The position numbers and the translations under genes were made by a program. Positions 1 to 7,472 of a stretch of DNA of 7,472 nt are shown here, in pieces (the first letter of the stretch is position 1; each line of letters opens with the position of its first letter). Where the stretch lies: positions 1 through 7,472 of the IMG/VR virus record IMGVR_UViG_2660238346_000032. One strand, written 5' to 3'. The notes beneath the pieces were generated by a model. It had not been told where the DNA came from. It saw only the letters and a list, made by a program, of their open reading frames with translations, and searched no databases. The DNA comes from a virus (lineage: Duplodnaviria; Heunggongvirae; Uroviricota; Caudoviricetes).

Positions 1-74
1 TCCGTAACGCCTCTGCCACGCGCGTAACGTGACAGGGATTAAGGGTAAACTAATTGATTTTGCAAGTTTTTATT

Positions 75-1361
75 TTACCCAGCTTTCTTATGGGGCATAC
101 ATGGGACACTTTCAGATAGTCTTTTGTTAAGGAGTTCTGTCTGTTCGTGATTGTTGTCTTTCATCCATGCTCCGTAAACATTGAATACCATTTGTGCGTT
201 TGTGTGGCCCATCTGGCTTGCGATAAAACTAGGATTAGCTCCTGCGGCAAGTGACCAGCATGCATAAGTATGCCTGGATTGGTACGATTTTCTGTGTCTC
301 AGACCTGCGCGTTTTAAGATACTTGTCCATGACTCCCTGATGGAGTCAACCTTGTAGTGAGGTCCGGACAACTGCTGCTGTTTTGTTACCTGAGGACTAA
401 AAACAAAAGTGCATTTATGCACAGCAGTTCTCCCATATTCCCTCTGCTTCACCTCTACAGAATGTTGCTTTCCAAGCATGGTCATTTCCGCCTGGCTTTT
501 AAGAGCATCAATAGCTGGTTGAACCAGATGAATTGTCCTTCCGGTGCCTGCATCGGTTTTTGGTGGAGTGAATTCGCCAAGTTTTGTATAATTTCTACGG
601 ATGGTTATAGTCCTTGCTTTAAGGTCTATATCTTCCCATGCCAGCGATACCAACTCCCCGTGACGAATACCCGTGTATACAGCGAGAATCCACAGGTTTT
701 TTGTTTGTTGATGACGGCAAGCCTCAATAAAACGAATAAATTCGTCACGGGTGAGAGGATCTGGTTTTACCTTGGACTTTTTTAAGGGAGCCAGACCGTT
801 AAATGGGTTTCCTGAGGTATAACCATTATCTGTTGCAAATTGAAACATTCCAGCTATGGTTGTCATATAGTAGTTTACCGTGACCACTGAGCGCCCTTTT
901 ATGGAAGAAGTCTTTCCATTAGAAAGCTTTTGGTAACCGGTCAACAAATCTCTCCTTACGAAAAGTAAATCCTCTTTTGTTATGGATGAAACCAGTTTTT
1001 TTTCACCTAACATTGGTAACATGTTTTTAATTACTGACTGGTAACGGTTAAGTGCATTCGCACAAATCTCAATTTTCTTAAGGTCCAACCATTTTTCCGA
1101 AAGTGCCTTAACGGTTATCTCTCTTTTTCCCAGACCAAAGTGTTTCAGGTTAGGGGAATTAGGGAACTGCGCGGCATAGTCGAAACTCCCCATTCTGATT
1201 GCAAAACAAACGGAAGTGCGAAGTTCACCAGCGATCTTCCGGTTTTTGGCTGTGTCAGGAACACCGAGGTTTTCTCTGACACGTTTGCCATTATAGTGAA
1301 ACCATATACGGAGTGATCCTCCATGGTTTTCAACGCCTGTCGGGTATGATGCGTTACTCAT
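75..1361 (-). CDS. int: Phage tyrosine integrase (lambdoid prophage Int, IntR-like)
   Basis: 428-aa ORF. ATG at 1361..1359 is preceded by GGGAGG with a 5-nt spacer. C-terminal region carries the tyrosine-recombinase catalytic signature (TGIRHGEL, SRHTYAC, MGHTNAQMVFNVYGAW, i.e. R / HxxR / Y). Overall architecture resembles E. coli Rac-type IntR as recalled from memory. It is the first gene at the left end of the block, as expected for a prophage integrase. Confidence 0.9.
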   Translation of the reverse strand: MSNASYPTGVENHGGSLRIWFHYNGKRVRENLGVPDTAKNRKIAGELRTSVCFAIRMGSFDYAAQFPNSPNLKHFGLGKREITVKALSEKWLDLKKIEICANALNRYQSVIKNMLPMLGEKKLVSSITKEDLLFVRRDLLTGYQKLSNGKTSSIKGRSVVTVNYYMTTIAGMFQFATDNGYTSGNPFNGLAPLKKSKVKPDPLTRDEFIRFIEACRHQQTKNLWILAVYTGIRHGELVSLAWEDIDLKARTITIRRNYTKLGEFTPPKTDAGTGRTIHLVQPAIDALKSQAEMTMLGKQHSVEVKQREYGRTAVHKCTFVFSPQVTKQQQLSGPHYKVDSIRESWTSILKRAGLRHRKSYQSRHTYACWSLAAGANPSFIASQMGHTNAQMVFNVYGAWMKDNNHEQTELLNKRLSESVPCMPHKKAG

Positions 1362-1394
1362 TAAACCTCCCAGACGTCCAGGAGCATTAACAGG

Positions 1395-1649
1395 TTAACC
1401 GGAACTTGCATTTTTGGCACCTGGTTGTTTCTGGTTTTCGATCCATCGCATAATTTCTTCGATGTTGTACAGGCATTCACTGTAGTGCCCCGGATCACCT
1501 TCTACAGCGTAATGGCGGTATTCTTTTCCCTGCATCCATGACTTTCTTCTTGCCCGCTCAATGGTGCCAGGCTTTAGCCCTGTTGATGCAATGAGGACTC
1601 TCTCCGTACACCATTTGCTGGGGGTTATCTGATAGATGATTGTCTGCAT
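1395..1649 (-). CDS. xis: Putative excisionase / excisionase-like DNA-binding protein
   Basis: 84-aa ORF immediately upstream of int with a 33-nt gap, in the same orientation. ATG at 1649 is preceded by GAGGT. Small basic protein (WCTERV, ERARRKSW, GKEYRHYA) in the canonical xis position. Family assignment rests on position and size, not on a verified alignment. Confidence 0.55.
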   Translation of the reverse strand: MQTIIYQITPSKWCTERVLIASTGLKPGTIERARRKSWMQGKEYRHYAVEGDPGHYSECLYNIEEIMRWIENQKQPGAKNASSG

Positions 1650-1667
1650 GCCAACCTCATAAAATTT

Positions 1668-1802
1668 TCATCCACGGCAGTGGCACCACACGTCAAACAT
1701 TCGCTTCACAACTTCACGACAGTAGAAGCCGTCAACATCTCGCGTCAGGTCATAGCGATTGCCGTAACGCTGGTGGACCCATCGTTCAAATGCTTTATTC
1801 AT
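1668..1802 (-). CDS. Small hypothetical protein (44 aa, Cys/His-containing), not in the supplied ORF track
   Basis: Hand translation of the minus strand gives MNKAFERWVHQRYGNRYDLTRDVDGFYCREVVKRMFDVWCHCRG with a TGA stop at 1668..1670. ATG at 1802..1800 is preceded by AAGGAAG with about a 7-nt spacer. It fills the gap between the upstream gene stop (1806..1808) and the xis start exactly. Three Cys and two His (C28, C41, H42, C43, H10) could form a small metal-binding site. Confidence 0.4.
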   Translation of the reverse strand: MNKAFERWVHQRYGNRYDLTRDVDGFYCREVVKRMFDVWCHCRG

Positions 1803-1805
1803 TCT

Positions 1806-2048
1806 TTACTTCCTTTTTATGGCTCGTAATTTTTTCAGGTGCTTTTCCTGCTCAGTGTCCGCGAGAATTTTGCGGTACTCCTGGTGGTCAATATGTTCGA
1901 ACAGGCTGTTGAACTCAGTGATGCGTACCCGCCCGGATCGTCCGTCCATCCGTCGAAAGAACACTGAGTGCTCAGTGATGCGAGTAATCACCACGGGGTA
2001 TCCGGCTCTGTCCGTGTATATCTGCCCGCGTTGAATCAAAGCGAACAT
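1806..2048 (-). CDS. Hypothetical phage protein (80 aa from ATG 2048; track ORF extends to a TTG at 2084)
   Basis: ORF in the same orientation and tightly packed. The first ATG is at 2048..2046 (MFALIQRGQIYTDRAGYPVVITRITEH...), preceded by a weak GGGGA SD. The track's longer 92-aa form starts at a TTG with no SD. Contains an internal RITE(H/F) repeat. No family recognised. Confidence 0.5.
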   Translation of the reverse strand: MFALIQRGQIYTDRAGYPVVITRITEHSVFFRRMDGRSGRVRITEFNSLFEHIDHQEYRKILADTEQEKHLKKLRAIKRK

Positions 2049-2132
2049 GTGGTTATCCCCATCGACAAATCGAGTACACAACAAACGCTGCTGCGAATAC
2101 CATCCCCAGAGTTACGATTGCATCAGGCCAGC

Positions 2133-2498
2133 TCATTGATTCACCTCCTGCGGCGGCTCCGGTAGCGGCATCCAGTGGGTTACTTTCGATGCCGGTTCTT
2201 CCCCATTGTCAGTAACTGCCCACCATTTGTTTCTCGAACAATCGTAATACCCTTCGAAGGTATCGCACTCAGTCCAGCCGTAAGACTTACCCCAACACCA
2301 AACATACTGTTTATCGTTCGGCATTCGCTCACTACAGCTTATCCAGCCATCCGTAGTTACCGGAGAATTGCCAGCCTTGCGCATGGCAATCTCCATGATT
2401 TCAACCATATCCCCTGGTGGAATTTTACAATGCTGACCAGTATGCCTCTGCTGTCTGGCATATTCGAGGATGTGCTCCAGCTTGGTACGATTAATCAT
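2133..2498 (-). CDS. DUF551-domain phage protein
   Basis: 121-aa ORF. The C-terminal half (WISCSERMP ... VTHWMPLPEPP) matches the characteristic DUF551 W...W / THWMPLPEPP pattern seen in many enterobacterial prophage proteins. ATG at 2498 overlaps the upstream stop as ATGA and is preceded by GGGAGA. Confidence 0.7.
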   Translation of the reverse strand: MINRTKLEHILEYARQQRHTGQHCKIPPGDMVEIMEIAMRKAGNSPVTTDGWISCSERMPNDKQYVWCWGKSYGWTECDTFEGYYDCSRNKWWAVTDNGEEPASKVTHWMPLPEPPQEVNQ

Positions 2499-3004
2499 GA
2501 TTTATCTCCCTTAAGCATGGCAGCGCGGCAGGCATCCTCTACGCCCTTAACTGCATCTGCGCAGTAGTTATAGCGATTGCATTCCACTAACTTCTGCTTG
2601 AGATTTTCAATTGATTGCGCGATATCAGCCTGTATTACCGGAGCTGGCGGAACGGCTGTCTGCACTCGAACGTCATCAGGTACTACCGGCTCTACTGCCA
2701 ACTGACTGGCATATTTGTTAATGGTAACGATAAGCTCTTGCTCGGCCTCATCCAGACAATCACCGATACCTCGCCTGTCACCATCAAAATCATCGAAATC
2801 GGCGCGAATCCTGGCAACCTCCCGGATTGCGGACAACACCTCACCAGGAATTACCGTAGAGTTGCCCGATAGTACATTCTGCTCCAGTGATGCCAGTGCA
2901 ATCCGTGCCAGCTCACGAATCTCACCGCCGTCTATATCGTCAATGTCATCACGGCCAGAAATGTTAGCCAGCCATTGCAGTCGCTCTTTGGTAATAGTGA
3001 TCAT
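2495..3004 (-). CDS. Hypothetical acidic phage protein (169 aa)
   Basis: ATG at 3004 overlaps the upstream gene stop as ATGA and is preceded by AAGGAA. Strongly acidic composition (DDIDDIDGGE, ADFDDFDGD). N-terminus MITITKERL resembles the N-terminus of the 101-aa protein at 4179..4484. Confidence 0.6.
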   Translation of the reverse strand: MITITKERLQWLANISGRDDIDDIDGGEIRELARIALASLEQNVLSGNSTVIPGEVLSAIREVARIRADFDDFDGDRRGIGDCLDEAEQELIVTINKYASQLAVEPVVPDDVRVQTAVPPAPVIQADIAQSIENLKQKLVECNRYNYCADAVKGVEDACRAAMLKGDKS

Positions 3005-3516
3005 GCCGCGTTTCCTTCTTCCTTATTAACAATTACACCGTCATATATTTCATTAAGGTGCCCTCTCAACTCCATGCGCCTTAATGCAGATAACATGTAA
3101 TCGCATTCAACCTGCTTATTCCCAGTAAATGGCTTATCGTCAGGATTACCCCAACAGCAATTACCCCTGGGCCATCCATGTACTTTCCGTACTCTTCCGT
3201 TAACAACGTGAAGTAATCCCCAGCCGGGAGGTAAATCCTCAACTGAAATAATTTCCGGCTCACTAATAAAGAATCGCCAGTCGCCCATGCCAAGTGAGGG
3301 ATTTTTACGGAAACGCTTTTTTCTATCTGCCAACAAGTCAGCACGAGAACACTTCGCTTCTATCAGGCATGATGCTGAATTTCTGAATCCCATAGCATCT
3401 GGCTGTTCTCCGGTACTGGTTACAGCTATAAAGCGGTCATGAAAACAAACCTTGAACCCGTTGCGCTTAAGGAACTTGTACGCAATCTGACAGAGTTCGC
3501 GGTGTGTTAACGCCAT
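3001..3516 (-). CDS. Putative PD-(D/E)xK-fold nuclease-like protein (171 aa)
   Basis: The track ORF runs to 3597 but would overlap the upstream gene by about 80 nt. ATG at 3516..3514 (MALTHRELCQ...) is preceded by AAGGAGAG and lies 1 nt after the upstream stop. Motif E7 ... G-E-Q-P-D40 ... L-I-E53-A-K55 has the spacing (12 residues between D and ExK) and context of Hjc/VRR-NUC/RecB-like PD-(D/E)xK nucleases. The C-terminal roughly 90 aa (GWGLLHVVNGR ... CCWGNPDD) is unrecognised. Confidence 0.55.
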   Translation of the reverse strand: MALTHRELCQIAYKFLKRNGFKVCFHDRFIAVTSTGEQPDAMGFRNSASCLIEAKCSRADLLADRKKRFRKNPSLGMGDWRFFISEPEIISVEDLPPGWGLLHVVNGRVRKVHGWPRGNCCWGNPDDKPFTGNKQVECDYMLSALRRMELRGHLNEIYDGVIVNKEEGNAA

Positions 3517-3517
3517 A

Positions 3518-4192
3518 TCACTCTCCTTTGATGCGAATGCCAGCGGCGCGTGGCACATTAACTTCCACGATGCGCACAGTTGGTTTGTACATCTCAATCG
3601 CTGTCAGCCAGTCAGCGCCAGTCATGCGCTTTTCTGCATCGCCATTAGTCCACTTAACCGGTACACCAATAGCCTTCATCGCGATTTCTATTTCCCCGGC
3701 AATGGCGCTTTTTCCGCAACCAGTAAAACCAGAAACAACGACAAGAACTTCACCTTTGGCTGGTTTTATTTCCCGTGCTTCCAGTTCAGCAATACGCTTA
3801 CTTCCATCCGAGATAACACCTTCGTAATACTCACGCTGCTCGTTGAGTTTTGATTTTGCCGACTCCAGTTGTTTTGTTAGTTCCGCAATACGGCAAACAT
3901 CGTTGATACGCGTTTCCTCTAATGCGTTGATCTCATCCAGTAGTGCCAAAGCAACCTTTGGATTAAAGGCAGCAATAAATTCAGCGTTTGCGTAAGCCTG
4001 AGCATCTGTTTCAACCAGGCAGTTAACATGACATTCTGCAATCACGCCACCGGGTTCTCCTTTCCATTTTTGGCAAACAAAAACTCCTGTTAAATTGCCG
4101 TGCTGGTTAACAGATGTATGCCCTACGATGTAGCTTCCTTTAGTTGCTTTCTCTGCCTTTTCACGCAGTGCCTGATAGTTAATCTCGCTCAC
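3518..4192 (-). CDS. Ea22-like (Ead/Ea22 family) protein with coiled-coil and P-loop-like C-terminal module
   Basis: The most plausible start is GTG at 4192..4190, preceded by a perfect AAGGAGG with a 6-nt spacer. The track's 4234 start is a TTG without an SD. N-terminus SEINYQALREKAEKATKG ... AEFIAAFNPKVALALLDE resembles the Ead/Ea22-like N-terminal domain as recalled from memory. The central segment is heptad-like (LEETRINDVCRIAELTKQLESAKSKLNEQREYYE). The C-terminus contains VLVVVSGFTGCGKSAIAGEIEIAMKAIG, i.e. a strand plus GxxxxGKS Walker-A-like loop plus helix. Confidence 0.65.
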   Translation of the reverse strand: MSEINYQALREKAEKATKGSYIVGHTSVNQHGNLTGVFVCQKWKGEPGGVIAECHVNCLVETDAQAYANAEFIAAFNPKVALALLDEINALEETRINDVCRIAELTKQLESAKSKLNEQREYYEGVISDGSKRIAELEAREIKPAKGEVLVVVSGFTGCGKSAIAGEIEIAMKAIGVPVKWTNGDAEKRMTGADWLTAIEMYKPTVRIVEVNVPRAAGIRIKGE

Positions 4193-4484
4193 TGGCTGCC
4201 TCCTTTGCTGGGCTTTCGAATATATCAAACTCAAACAACTTAACTACGTCATCAAACAGGACATAATCGCCATCAGAATCTTCAGTCATGTCAGCGCCAC
4301 AATCCTGACCGAACGAGTCACAACCACCCATATCAAGCTCGTATCGCTTGAGTTTTGCGATATTTGATAAATTCAGCGCCAGTACAGCAAGGTCATAAAC
4401 CTCGTCAGCGGTATACCCTGCACCATGCCCATACATTTCAATGCGGGATATGATTTCTTCTACACGTTGTTTTGTGATTGTCAT
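4179..4484 (-). CDS. Hypothetical highly acidic small protein (101 aa)
   Basis: ATG at 4484 overlaps the upstream stop as ATGA and is preceded by GGGAGGTGA. I count roughly 23 Asp/Glu against 9 Lys/Arg, with an acidic C-terminal tail (DMTEDSDGDYVLFDDVVKLFEFDIFE). N-terminal MTITKQRV resembles the N-terminus of the 2495..3004 protein. Confidence 0.6.
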   Translation of the reverse strand: MTITKQRVEEIISRIEMYGHGAGYTADEVYDLAVLALNLSNIAKLKRYELDMGGCDSFGQDCGADMTEDSDGDYVLFDDVVKLFEFDIFESPAKEAASERD

Positions 4485-4966
4485 TTTTGCTCACCTCCCT
4501 GTTCTTCCAGAAAAATACGCATAGCCTCAAGCATCTCTTCGGTGTCATACGGTGACAACTTGTCACGCAGGATGTGTTCAATGCTGTTAACGAACTTGCG
4601 GATTGCTTTGCGTTCAATTTCAGCCAGGAAAGCGTCTGTAGCCGGGGTTTGCGGCATACCTCCGTCTGTTGCGCAGATATACGCATCAGATAGTTCATCC
4701 TGCTCGCCATCAAACACGTAGCAACTCTGTACGATAAATTTATTCAGCCCCGCACTCTCCGCTGCCAGCGCCGCGCACTTGGCCTCAAGGTTATCAATCG
4801 TGATTCCAGCAGAACGACACTCCCGCAACGCCGTTTCTAGTTTTGATTCAAGTTCACCGAACTTACGGACAAGATATTCAGCGTTTGTTTCGTTAACCTT
4901 TAAATCTCGGGGGATGCATTTACCTTTCAGAAATCCATCCATCTCAATTAGTGACATTTGTTTCAT
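4481..4966 (-). CDS. Hypothetical acidic phage protein (161 aa)
   Basis: ATG at 4966 is preceded by GGAG. It is the first gene after a 171-bp gap and is followed by ATGA-coupled downstream genes. Acidic, with a predicted helical/coiled-coil central segment. No family recognised. Confidence 0.6.
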
Positions 4967-5137
4967 TTCTTCCCACTCCGCAACATCGCATTCAGATATT
5001 TGTTTTGATTTACTGATGGAAAAGAATTTCTCTTAAGCAATTCCTCTCTCGATGGCATTGGCTTTACGCGTTGGTGAATAATCATTTCTGCCGGAAGAAT
5101 GCCGGGGTTGTATGCAAGTCATCTCATGGTAAATTCC

Positions 5138-5431
5138 TCAGTCATTACTGATAGCGCCATAGCGTGATCGGTAATTACGCAGGCGCGGGTCAATTTCAGG
5201 GAAGTGGGTATATGTGGCTTTGCGGAATGGTCGGATTGATGTCTGGTAAATTCGCTCGCGTTCTTCTTTCTCTGCAAGCCATATACAATGGCGAAATTCC
5301 TTTTCCTCTTTCGTTTCCTGCGGTAGCGACATTATCCGGTCGTAGTTTTTTCTGAATTTATCCAGCACCTCCGATACGGAATTGCCGGAACAGCGGCGCG
5401 CGTCGTCCGCACCATAGAGAGGCGCTGGCAT
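5138..5431 (-). CDS. Hypothetical phage protein (97 aa)
   Basis: ATG at 5431 is preceded by AGGAG with a 7-nt spacer, 13 nt downstream of the ssb stop. Charged protein (KEEKEFRHCIWLAEKEERER). No family recognised. Confidence 0.55.
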   Translation of the reverse strand: MPAPLYGADDARRCSGNSVSEVLDKFRKNYDRIMSLPQETKEEKEFRHCIWLAEKEERERIYQTSIRPFRKATYTHFPEIDPRLRNYRSRYGAISND

Positions 5432-5444
5432 GATTTTCTCCTGA

Positions 5445-5951
5445 TTAAATTGCGTGAATAGCGTGACGAGGGAAGGGGAGAGTTACTGGTGCAAAGGGTA
5501 TATCGTCGTCAAAATCCATCGGAGGTTCGTTGTGTTGTGCTGGTGATGATTGCTGCTGTGGCTTCTGTGATTGCCTGCTGGCTGCTTGTTGTTTGCTGTC
5601 GCCAATGCCGCCAAGCATTTGCATCACGCCATTAATTCCGACATGAACCTCGGTTGTGTAACGGTCTTGCCCTGACTGGTCTTTCCACTTTCTGGTTCTC
5701 AGCATTCCCTCGAAATAAATCTGATCACCTTTTTTCACATACTGCCCCACGACCCCAGCCAGTTTCCCGGATACAGCAACACGATACCATTCAGTCAATT
5801 CCTTTTGCTCGCCAGTATTTTTATCTCGCCATTGTTCTGACGTGGCTATTGTCAGGTTAGCGAACGCTGTACCTGATGGTGAGTATCGAACTTCCGGGTC
5901 TTGTCCTACCCGACCAAGGATAATCACCTTATTTATCCCGCGAGAACTCAT
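5445..5951 (-). CDS. ssb: Single-stranded DNA-binding protein (prophage SSB) with atypical C-terminal extension
   Basis: Probable start is ATG at 5951..5949 ([23 protein letters not shown]...), preceded by GAGGTGGAG. The track start at 5960 is a GTG three codons upstream. The OB-fold region aligns closely with E. coli SSB ([23 protein letters not shown] ... [19 protein letters not shown]) as recalled from memory, followed by a Q/S/P-rich linker and the conserved acidic tip [11 protein letters not shown]. The ORF then continues 15 codons ([15 protein letters not shown]) before TAA at 5445..5447. Confidence 0.9.
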
Positions 5952-6415
5952 TTGCTCCACCTCTTGCCAGTTTTTATGTTGCTTATAATTGATTGAGATA
6001 CACCCATGTCTTTTGCTATCTTGTACTGACTCTCTTTTTCAGAGAGTCTTTTCCTGATTTCTATAACCTGCCACTCTGTTAATTTTGCACCATGATGAGC
6101 ATGACCTTTTTTTGCTCCACGATGCCTTCCTTTTGCTATCTTGTCGTCCATGTTTTCTTGCGCGCTACCTAAAAAGAGATGTTCAGGATTAACGCAGCAT
6201 GGGTTATCGCATTTGTGGCAAACCATCTTCCCAGATGGGATGGGGGAGTGATAAAGCTCAAAAGCAACCCGATGAGAAAGCATTGTTACGCCAAAGGCTA
6301 CAAATTTTGTGTATCCTCCTTTGTTTTTTGAATAGGTAGACTCCCAGCAACCTGTTGTTTCATTAACTTTGTAGCTGGACTCGAATCTTTTAATAATTCC
6401 GTCCAAGTGAGACAT
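5948..6415 (-). CDS. HNH endonuclease (HNH_3-type homing-endonuclease-like) with C-terminal putative DNA-binding region
   Basis: 155-aa [17 protein letters not shown] ... [42 protein letters not shown] matches the phage HNH_3 pattern (GCWE, KGGY, HR, CH.CDN..C.NP.HL). ATG at 6415..6413 abuts the upstream TAA stop (6416..6418). Its TGA stop (5948..5950) overlaps the ssb ATG as ATGA. Confidence 0.85.
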
Positions 6416-7123
6416 TTATGCCGCCTGTTTTAGTTCGTTAACTCTGATGTTCATTACATGAACGCATTTAGCCTGCGCATCCTCATTGCCAGCCATTAAT
6501 TGCCAGTCATGCTGATAACGTTCGATGAGTTTTTTCTTGTCAGTTTCTGTCGACGCATAATCGCTGAAGTCTTTCAGGATTTGTTCGCAGTCAACCGATG
6601 GAGATTTCTGGTTGGTATTTTCTGGTGATGGTTGATTGCCAGATGCTGGTATTGCCCATCCCGGCAGCGATGGAGGGGACCAGTAAAATCCTGTTCCATC
6701 CTTAAGTTTTTCCCTGTGCCATCCCTGCTTTTTATCGAGAGATGTTTGTGCGAAACCTTCCTCAAGGTTATACAGATACCGACCGATTCCCCACTGAACG
6801 GCAGCGCGCTTCATTGCACTGGAACGACCACCTTTTACGGCTTCTACCTGCGTGTTTTCAGCAGCATCCCATTTGGTTACCCATTCGGAATCAATCCTGA
6901 TTGATATGCCGCATTCAACGCCTCCGTTGTTGGGAATATCGCGGTATTCATTGCGCCATCCTGCTTTGCCGCAAACATCGTCCAGGCGTTTCATGATTGC
7001 CCTGTTCGTGACATAAGCCAGCACCATAGCCCACACCTTTCCATCGCGTGTTTTACCGCTTTGCTGTATTCGCCATTCGATATCTTCAGGGCTGAATGGC
7101 TCATCGAATTTATTCAAATCCAT
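6416..7123 (-). CDS. Single-strand annealing protein / phage recombinase, Rad52(Sak)-like
   Basis: 235-aa ORF. ATG at 7123 is preceded by GAGGTGA with a 5-nt spacer. Segment YVTNRAIMKRLDDVCGKAGW aligns position-for-position with the Rad52 core [20 protein letters not shown], and AMKRAAVQWGIGRYLY matches the conserved SSAP motif. It sits next to ssb, as in a recombination module. Confidence 0.7.
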   Translation of the reverse strand: MDLNKFDEPFSPEDIEWRIQQSGKTRDGKVWAMVLAYVTNRAIMKRLDDVCGKAGWRNEYRDIPNNGGVECGISIRIDSEWVTKWDAAENTQVEAVKGGRSSAMKRAAVQWGIGRYLYNLEEGFAQTSLDKKQGWHREKLKDGTGFYWSPPSLPGWAIPASGNQPSPENTNQKSPSVDCEQILKDFSDYASTETDKKKLIERYQHDWQLMAGNEDAQAKCVHVMNIRVNELKQAA

Positions 7124-7131
7124 AATTCACC

Positions 7132-7302
7132 TCAGAATGGACATAGCCCAAGGAAATAACGCTGATTTAATACTTCGACTCGGGACAAATTAAGGCATAC
7201 CCGCATTCCTTCGCGGTCACCATTATGGCGATACCAGAGAGCTTTCTGCGTGTATATGCGTCTCTGTAACTTGCTCTCCTTCACTGTGGTTGCAAGTGAC
7301 AT
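7132..7302 (-). CDS. Small hypothetical protein (56 aa) or remnant of a gene disrupted by the adjacent IS
   Basis: ATG at 7302..7300 (MSLATTVKESKLQRRIYTQKALWYRHNGDREGMRVCLNLSRVEVLNQRYFLGLCPF) is preceded by AGGAGA with a 5-nt spacer. The track start at 7338 is a GTG that lies inside the presumed IS end. The ORF stops 8 nt before the SSAP start. Confidence 0.35.
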   Translation of the reverse strand: MSLATTVKESKLQRRIYTQKALWYRHNGDREGMRVCLNLSRVEVLNQRYFLGLCPF

Positions 7303-7312
7303 GAATATCTCC

Positions 7313-7472
7313 TGAGGTAGCCTGAGTTTAACGGACACTCCTTCCTGAAATAGAATGGCATCAGAAGGAGCTAATAATGAGCAGAAAAACCCAACGTTAC
7401 TCTAAAGAGTTCAAAGCCGAAGCTGTCAGAACGGTTCTTGAAAATCAACTTTCGATCAGTGAAGGCGCTTCC
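7313..7472 (+). mobile_element. IS3-family insertion sequence, left end (partial; continues beyond window)
   Basis: A divergently oriented transposase OrfA begins at 7377. The roughly 65 bp upstream begins TGAGGTAGCC..., consistent with the TG-initiated left inverted repeat typical of IS3-family elements. The exact boundary at about 7313 is approximate. It resembles an IS600-like element from memory, which I could not verify. Confidence 0.6.
7377..7472 (+). CDS. IS3-family transposase OrfA (N-terminal 32 codons; truncated by window edge)
   Basis: ATG at 7377 is preceded by AAGGAG with about a 7-nt spacer. The translation MSRKTQRYSKEFKAEAVRTVLENQLSISEGAS has the N-terminal helix-turn-helix pattern (SxEFKxEAV ... 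LS.SE.A) of IS3-family OrfA proteins. Confidence 0.8.
   Translation, partial: MSRKTQRYSKEFKAEAVRTVLENQLSISEGAS

Follow-up and report, generated by a model that had tools for sequence, protein, structure and literature searches.

The stretch of DNA analysed here (the window, 7,472 nt) carries a block of leftward prophage genes that stops, near the right-hand edge, against the left end of an IS3-family element. The question raised by this locus is where in the leftward operon the element lies, and whether the genes on its left still receive transcripts from the early promoter PL. We consider it probable that IS600 transposed very recently, as a simple insertion, into the PL operon of a lambdoid prophage of mosaic composition at mlrA, between kil and the block that runs from gp42 to int. 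The element lies in the delayed-early leftward operon of an E. coli prophage, inside annotated gp42.1, and its transposase gene points away from the visible prophage genes. The window corresponds, bar two, to the last 7472 bases of contig CCCD01000080.1 (GCA_000939215.1), to which it was 100% identical.

The element was identified as IS600 (IS3 family). Its left end occupies positions 7313–7472 on the + strand, and the window stops within the element. Over the leftmost 160 nt, the part open to comparison with a full 1264-bp IS600 copy from E. coli O145:NM (L014, 2511–3774), 160/160 positions were identical; PGAP labels this full copy ‘IS3-like element IS600 family transposase’, with a programmed frameshift. 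By the ISfinder convention, copies count as the same IS when their nucleotide sequences agree at about 95% of positions or better. A megablast search with positions 7300–7472 as query matched 3423 E. coli records (E about 1e-78), 3170 of them at least 99% identical, and 435 Escherichia/Shigella plasmids, 318 of them at least 99% identical. Among the matches listed, the underlying features were ‘IS3-like element IS600 family transposase’. The first bases of the element at 7313 read TGAGGTAGCCTGAGTTTAACGGACACTCC. The right end of the full copy terminates in ...ACCTCA, and its reverse complement agreed with the left terminal inverted repeat (IRL) at 20/29 positions, including the terminal TGAGGT and the GCGGACAC core. 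A Shine-Dalgarno sequence (AAGGAG, 7365–7370) lies ahead of the orfA start codon, and the 32 visible orfA codons matched PF01527 HTH_Tnp_1 with an E value of 5.9e-8 and 33.3 bits (gathering cutoff 24.1). The family features visible in the window were found, namely the identity with IS600, an imperfect inverted repeat that starts with TG, and an orfA helix-turn-helix downstream of the IRL. In this family orfA and orfB overlap, and a -1 programmed frameshift yields a DDE OrfAB transposase; orfB, the frameshift site, the right end, and the target duplication of this copy fall beyond the window edge.

These results agree with the preliminary description of the window, which had placed an IS3-family left end at about 7313. 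The rightward orfA it reported, divergent from the prophage genes, was also recovered (orfA ATG at 7377 on the + strand, prophage ORF 7132–7302 on the - strand), as was the distance of about 10 nt between the IS and the last visible prophage ORF, whose ATG lies at 7302 and leaves a gap of 10 nt (7303–7312). Compared with annotated IS600 copies, the left terminal repeat, the promoter-like site, the Shine-Dalgarno sequence, and the first 32 orfA codons were identical in the window, and the 160 visible nucleotides showed no distinguishing feature. IS600 was first described in Shigella sonnei and is common in Shigella, EIEC, and STEC. It has expanded in Shigella and EIEC and has been amplified in several STEC lineages (PMC7373316, PMC9397093). 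The full copy L014 is located inside yfdR of E. coli O145:NM, with no obvious 3-bp direct repeat flanking it; its flanks (2490–2515 and 3765–3790) read ...ATCTC on the left and CACCG... on the right, so some IS600 copies have no clean target duplication. The coordinates of the features are collected in Table 1.

Table 1. Features of the leftward prophage arm and of the IS600 left end, in window coordinates.
Feature	Position	Strand	Evidence
Leftward arm downstream of the IS relative to PL: HNH, ssb, anti-RecBCD, ea22-like, DUF551, xis-like (DUF1233), integrase	75..6415	-	
Rad52/Rad22-family single-strand annealing recombinase, next gene downstream of gp42	6416..7123	-	PF04098, WP_044694927.1
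Small prophage gene, HK97 gp42 / Sf6 gp29 homologue, 56 aa	7132..7302	-	phrog_1723, E 5.5e-34
gp42.1 / Sf6 gene 30 3' remnant, 29 codons + stop	7223..7312	-	intact ORF matches phrog_2123, E 2.1e-41
Insertion point with candidate 3-bp target duplication TCC	7310..7312	.	Alignments with Sf6, E2348/69, L003, L007
IS600 left terminal inverted repeat (IRL), 5'-TG start	7313..7341	+	20/29 vs right end
Promoter-like TTAACG-17-TAGAAT, within IRL, facing orfA	7328..7356	+	sigma-70 consensus match only
IS600 orfA, first 32 codons (MSRKTQRYSKEFKAEAVRTVLENQLSISEGAS)	7377..7472	+	ATG 7377, Pfam match

The insertion point was located by alignment. Homology to Sf6, to the E2348/69 prophage, and to two IS-free E. 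coli contigs (L003 and L007) ends at 7312, and the T at 7313 is common to the empty site by chance. Across the prophage/IS junction (marked here by a slash) the sequence near the right edge of the window is ...GCAAGTGACATGAATATCTCC/TGAGGTAGCCTGAGTTTAACGGACACTCCTTCCTGAAATAGAATGGCATCAGAAGGAGCTAATAATGAGCAGAAAAACC..., and the empty site reads CATGAATATCTCC/TTCGTTACCGAT, with the continuation TTCGTTACCGATTAATTC. If the insertion was simple, TCC is the predicted 3-bp target duplication, and the right junction predicted for it is ...GTACACCTCA-TCC-TTCGTTACCGATT... (also written ...GTACACCTCA-TCC-TTCGTTACCG...). The 69-nt right-hand target sequence was uninterrupted in 129/129 other copies from IMG/VR and the fetched loci, and none of the closed E. 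coli genomes carried the prophage/IS600 junction, which indicates that the insertion is lineage-specific. Compared with other lambdoid prophages, the kil/gp42 site was found occupied only here among the sequences examined.

An empty allele of the same prophage was found in contig JAAGYL010000001.1 (GCA_010686485.1; L003/L017). This twin contig was 100% identical over window positions 1–7313 and carried no IS600. Beyond the site come gp42.1, kil, cIII, and a DUF2528 gene, after which the contig runs into an IS1 end. The filled and the empty alleles differ by 0 substitutions over 7.3 kb, and the transposition must therefore have been very recent. The far side of IS600 in the filled allele would be expected to carry the N-terminal part of gp42.1, followed by kil, cIII, DUF2528, and so on. 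The twin contig itself begins with the IS1 end (L003, 1–125), 1.1 kb from the IS600 site, and a terminator-like hairpin (AGGCCGcatagtCGGCCT) with a T-run was observed next to it. A distance of 207 nt separates the IS1 end from the start of the DUF2528 gene. A search of IMG/VR for this IS1 junction gave no match. The operon in the twin's lineage may already have been cut from PL by IS1 before IS600 arrived, in which case IS600 would have changed little. The preliminary description had suggested a defective prophage, and the IS1 end 1.1 kb upstream in the twin gives some support to a decayed one.

Every junction-bearing contig terminates inside IS600, and a draft contig break in a multicopy IS explains the right boundary of the window. 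The exact recombinase protein (WP_044694927.1) was recorded only under E. coli, for which reason a Shigella host, the first guess, was rejected. The protein is present in 17 contigs, none longer than 1 Mb, and none of the 17 contigs with this exact Rad52 allele extends across the IS. An integrase look-up returned related prophages, none with a contig crossing the IS. Homology search with the DUF2528 protein of the twin strain gave no 100% identical representative. A 39-mer spanning the left junction was absent from GTDB representative genomes and from JGI metagenomes; in IMG/VR it occurred once, in a 5.4-kb draft contig that was already among the junction carriers.

These contig ends leave room for a second explanation, which we regard as unlikely, though to be taken seriously. 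IS600 would then mark the boundary of a rearrangement (a deletion, an inversion, or IS–IS recombination) by which the right side was lost or moved, leaving a remnant arm and no duplication; the material removed or relocated would comprise kil, cIII, N, the immunity region, and the late genes. The predicted right junction (IS600 right end, 0–8 nt, then TTCGTTACCGATTAATTC) gave 0 matches in IMG/VR, JGI metagenomes, and GTDB representatives, as expected if the right side were gone. However, a short right-hand draft contig would hardly be expected in the collections searched, and these negatives carry little weight. The twin prophage already ends in IS1 only 1.1 kb away, IS600-associated variation is present in the same prophage in another sample (an IS600 right end at about window position 5124, in opposite orientation, in L021), and the L014 copy shows that IS600 copies lacking an obvious 3-bp duplication exist. 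Against this, 0 differences over 7.3 kb mean a very recent event with little time for a secondary rearrangement, and most IS copies are simple insertions.

Under the preferred explanation of a simple insertion, transcription from PL would have to proceed through 1264 nt of IS sequence, giving antisense RNA that is not translated, provided that the far side is intact. Untranslated RNA normally provokes Rho-dependent polarity. The predicted outcome is a polar block, in which the recombination, anti-RecBCD, and xis/int genes would be uncoupled from PL, partly or wholly depending on N antitermination. The antisense strand of IS600 contains two weak terminator-like hairpins, not above the number in shuffles. 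Transcription modified by N passes through terminators in lambda-type phages, and Adhya, Gottesman and de Crombrugghe reportedly found in 1974 that lambda N antitermination suppresses the polarity of IS insertions. On this reasoning, genes downstream of the 1.26-kb insertion could still be expressed if the prophage has kept N, nutL, and PL. The preliminary description had called the operon probably severed from its native promoter; as N antitermination could largely suppress the polarity, that word is too strong, although its underlying statement, that the IS lies between the visible prophage genes and their early promoter to the right, was borne out. Classical polar IS insertions in lambda likewise place an IS in an N-antiterminated early operon, upstream of the recombination and xis/int genes. 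In the present lineage, N, nutL, and PL lie outside the sequences that were seen.

IEE (IS-excision enhancer)-promoted precise excision of IS600 is documented (PMC9397093). The insertion could be viewed as a selectively retained ‘grounding’ mutation, which locks the prophage, and the disruption of the curli regulator gene mlrA, into a clonal lineage and is perhaps reversible by IEE, but we consider this improbable. If it were true, the xis/int and recombination module would be uncoupled from PL, with kil, cIII, and N left on the promoter side; combined with IEE excision, the prophage and mlrA state would be switchable.

Promoter-like sequences were searched by a sigma-70 consensus scan, which is blind to cII-dependent pI-type promoters. 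The whole window contained five sigma-70-like sites, compared with 11.2 +/- 3.3 in shuffles, so that such sites were under-represented. On the - strand there were two, both weak, at 4093 and 2817. This scarcity of promoter-like sites is consistent with one long leftward unit fed by an upstream promoter. TTAACG-17-TAGAAT was the sole sigma-70-like match in positions 6900–7472 and in the whole IS600 copy, and is probably the weak transposase promoter of IS600 itself. The scan detected no leftward (-) sigma-70-like site in 7313–7472 or on the - strand of the full IS600, so that no read-out into gp42 is predicted. On its left end, IS600 offers no recognisable outward promoter for the downstream genes.

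It is accordingly very improbable that an outward or hybrid promoter of the IS600 left end activates the recombination/xis/int block. IS3-family elements can create hybrid promoters, and the Shine-Dalgarno sequence of gp42 (GGAG, 7309–7312) was kept directly at the IS boundary. However, the known outward -35 of IS3-family elements is located in the right end, not the left. The best candidate found manually across the junction, GTTAAA-17-GATATT, had 3/6 and 4/6 hexamer matches, and its start would fall at or beyond the gp42 ATG.

The position of the element within the operon was determined by synteny with relatives. In Sf6, the region rightward of the equivalent point contains the rest of gene 30, kil, cIII, gp33, tL2A, and gp34, and then ral, gp36, N, nutL, and OL/PL, with PL about 3.2 kb from the equivalent point. 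The cIII-kil pair is located directly upstream of the site in HK97, HK022, HK75, mEp235, and H-19B; gp42.1 is annotated upstream of the site in the first four of these, but not in H-19B. HK542 has a different cIII-labelled ORF at that place, without kil. As for the prophage itself, the genes from gp42 to int are in the window, all on the - strand, and kil and cIII are in the twin contig; the full order is seen in Sf6. The synteny with Sf6, together with the continuation of the twin to gp42.1, kil, cIII, and DUF2528, places the insertion in the middle of the operon, and judged by these alignments IS600 is located inside annotated gp42.1. The element separates the side of kil and cIII (and of N, if present) from gp42, the Rad52-type recombinase, HNH, ssb, anti-RecBCD, ea22-like, xis, and int.

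In the preliminary description the IS had marked the upstream end of the early-left operon, and this placement is contradicted by the synteny of Sf6 and the twin contig, both with kil and cIII upstream. The comparison with intact relatives that it proposed thus upheld the IS600 insertion, but the presence of gp42.1, kil, and cIII upstream in those relatives spoke against its location at the upstream end. The corresponding explanation, in which the operon starts with gp42 and IS600 directly abuts or has replaced its native promoter and regulators, is likewise very improbable. It draws on gp42 being the last leftward ORF visible, with the IS 10 nt from its ATG. However, kil and cIII were upstream in 6/7 annotated relatives (not HK542) and in the isogenic empty-site contig, Sf6 has a further ~2.9 kb before N, nutL, and PL, and the uninterrupted site was the same in 129/129 other copies, with no promoter annotated or predicted there.

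The identical junction was present in at least eight assemblies or read sets (L004, L005, L006, and L008–L012), of which two are Logan contigs, produced with a different assembler; L013 is the IMG/VR copy of L006. Among the carrier strains are those of assemblies GCA_000939215.1, GCA_000936775.1, and GCA_000941535.1, with ERR738820 as one of the read runs. An assembly chimera of a prophage contig with a collapsed IS600 repeat can practically be dismissed, since the same junction came from eight independent assemblies or read sets, Logan contigs included, and breaks exactly at the canonical IS600 terminus, even though the window ends inside a multicopy repeat, essentially at a contig end.

The insertion point falls in a region of overlapping small ORFs, which we compared over window positions 7132–7312, L003 1043–1292, and the HK97 locus (L026, 405–656). 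The pN/pS of gp42 was about 0.34 versus the HK022 phage group, indicating purifying selection in this frame, and gp42 is therefore a genuine coding gene. The overlapping gp42.1 ORF (52–56 aa when intact; Sf6 gene 30 is 52 aa) is cut by IS600 after codon 23. This ORF was intact in L003, L007, Sf6, HK022, HK75, mEp235, HK542, and H-19B, and was open in all nine relatives examined; its ATG overlaps the kil stop codon. In the part of gp42.1 that overlaps gp42, almost all substitutions were non-synonymous in the gp42.1 frame, which makes its coding status doubtful; the unique 5' part was nearly invariant in DNA, and hence uninformative on coding. The selection analysis backs the gp42 frame only, and this raises the question whether gp42.1 is a gene in its own right or belongs to a gp42 that is frameshifted or extended. 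In HK97 (L026, 405–656) a 2-nt indel was observed to fuse the N-terminus of gp42.1 to the C-terminus of gp42, giving the 83-aa Gp42.1. A 90% protein cluster uniting gp42 with ‘ERF family protein, partial’ entries was set aside as a clustering oddity, as those entries show no similarity to gp42.

The content of the arm at 75..6415 was taken from the ORF list and from the gene and Pfam tables of identical contigs (L003, L004). The recombinase gene is a homologue of Sf6 gp28 with 97% nucleotide identity, and identity to Sf6 was 97% over window positions 6413–7313 as a whole. The C-terminal ~55 residues of the recombinase (...ETDKKKLIERYQHDWQL...NELKQAA) presumably resemble the C-terminus of P22 Erf, so that this single-strand annealing protein may be a mosaic. 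Between the recombinase gene and ssb, an HNH endonuclease gene was observed (PF13392, 5948–6415, -). At this place E2348/69-type prophages also have a gene, whereas Sf6 has none, and the HNH gene looks like a mobile cassette.

The early-left operons of Sf6, HK97, and HK022 have the same order distal to kil, namely gp42.1/gp42, annealing recombinase, ssb, abc2, ea22-like ... xis, int. In contrast to these phages, the window arm is mosaic: its int-proximal 4.2 kb was ~96% identical to O157:H7 mlrA prophages, and the remainder was ~97% identical to E2348/69-type prophages. Among closed E. coli genomes, none carried more than 55% of the prophage arm in one place. The prophage is integrated at or in mlrA (yehV), as seen from window positions 1–1361 and the flanks in L004/L017, and yehW-like ABC-transporter genes follow. 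Prophages at the mlrA site are reported to impair curli/biofilm regulation in O157:H7 (PMC3874044, PMC5931665). Some O157:H7 prophages at mlrA bear IS1203 in the related int-proximal arm.

More widely, pathogenic E. coli have IS3-family elements (IS629/IS1203, IS600) inserted in their lambdoid prophages, which represent the same kind of element in the same setting; some of these insertions are reversible through IEE. The window thus presents a known IS in a known kind of place, and such insertion is already known as a routine event in the species. Lambdoid prophages of pathogenic E. coli and Shigella commonly carry IS insertions, and the polar effects of such insertions are described in textbooks. 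The finding has little importance beyond annotation, but it is useful for judging whether excision of the mlrA prophage is still possible, and the IS600 junction serves as a lineage marker.

A further IS600 end was observed in a metagenome scaffold with the same prophage arm (L021; ENA ERZ28586990 scaffold_34), which had 3 mismatches in 5.1 kb. Positions 1–54 of this scaffold are an IS600 right end (...GTACACCTCA) joined at window position ~5124, just downstream of the abc2-like gene (5138–5431), in the orientation opposite to that of the window's IS600. This junction may stem from another insertion, independent of the first, or from an inversion mediated by IS600.
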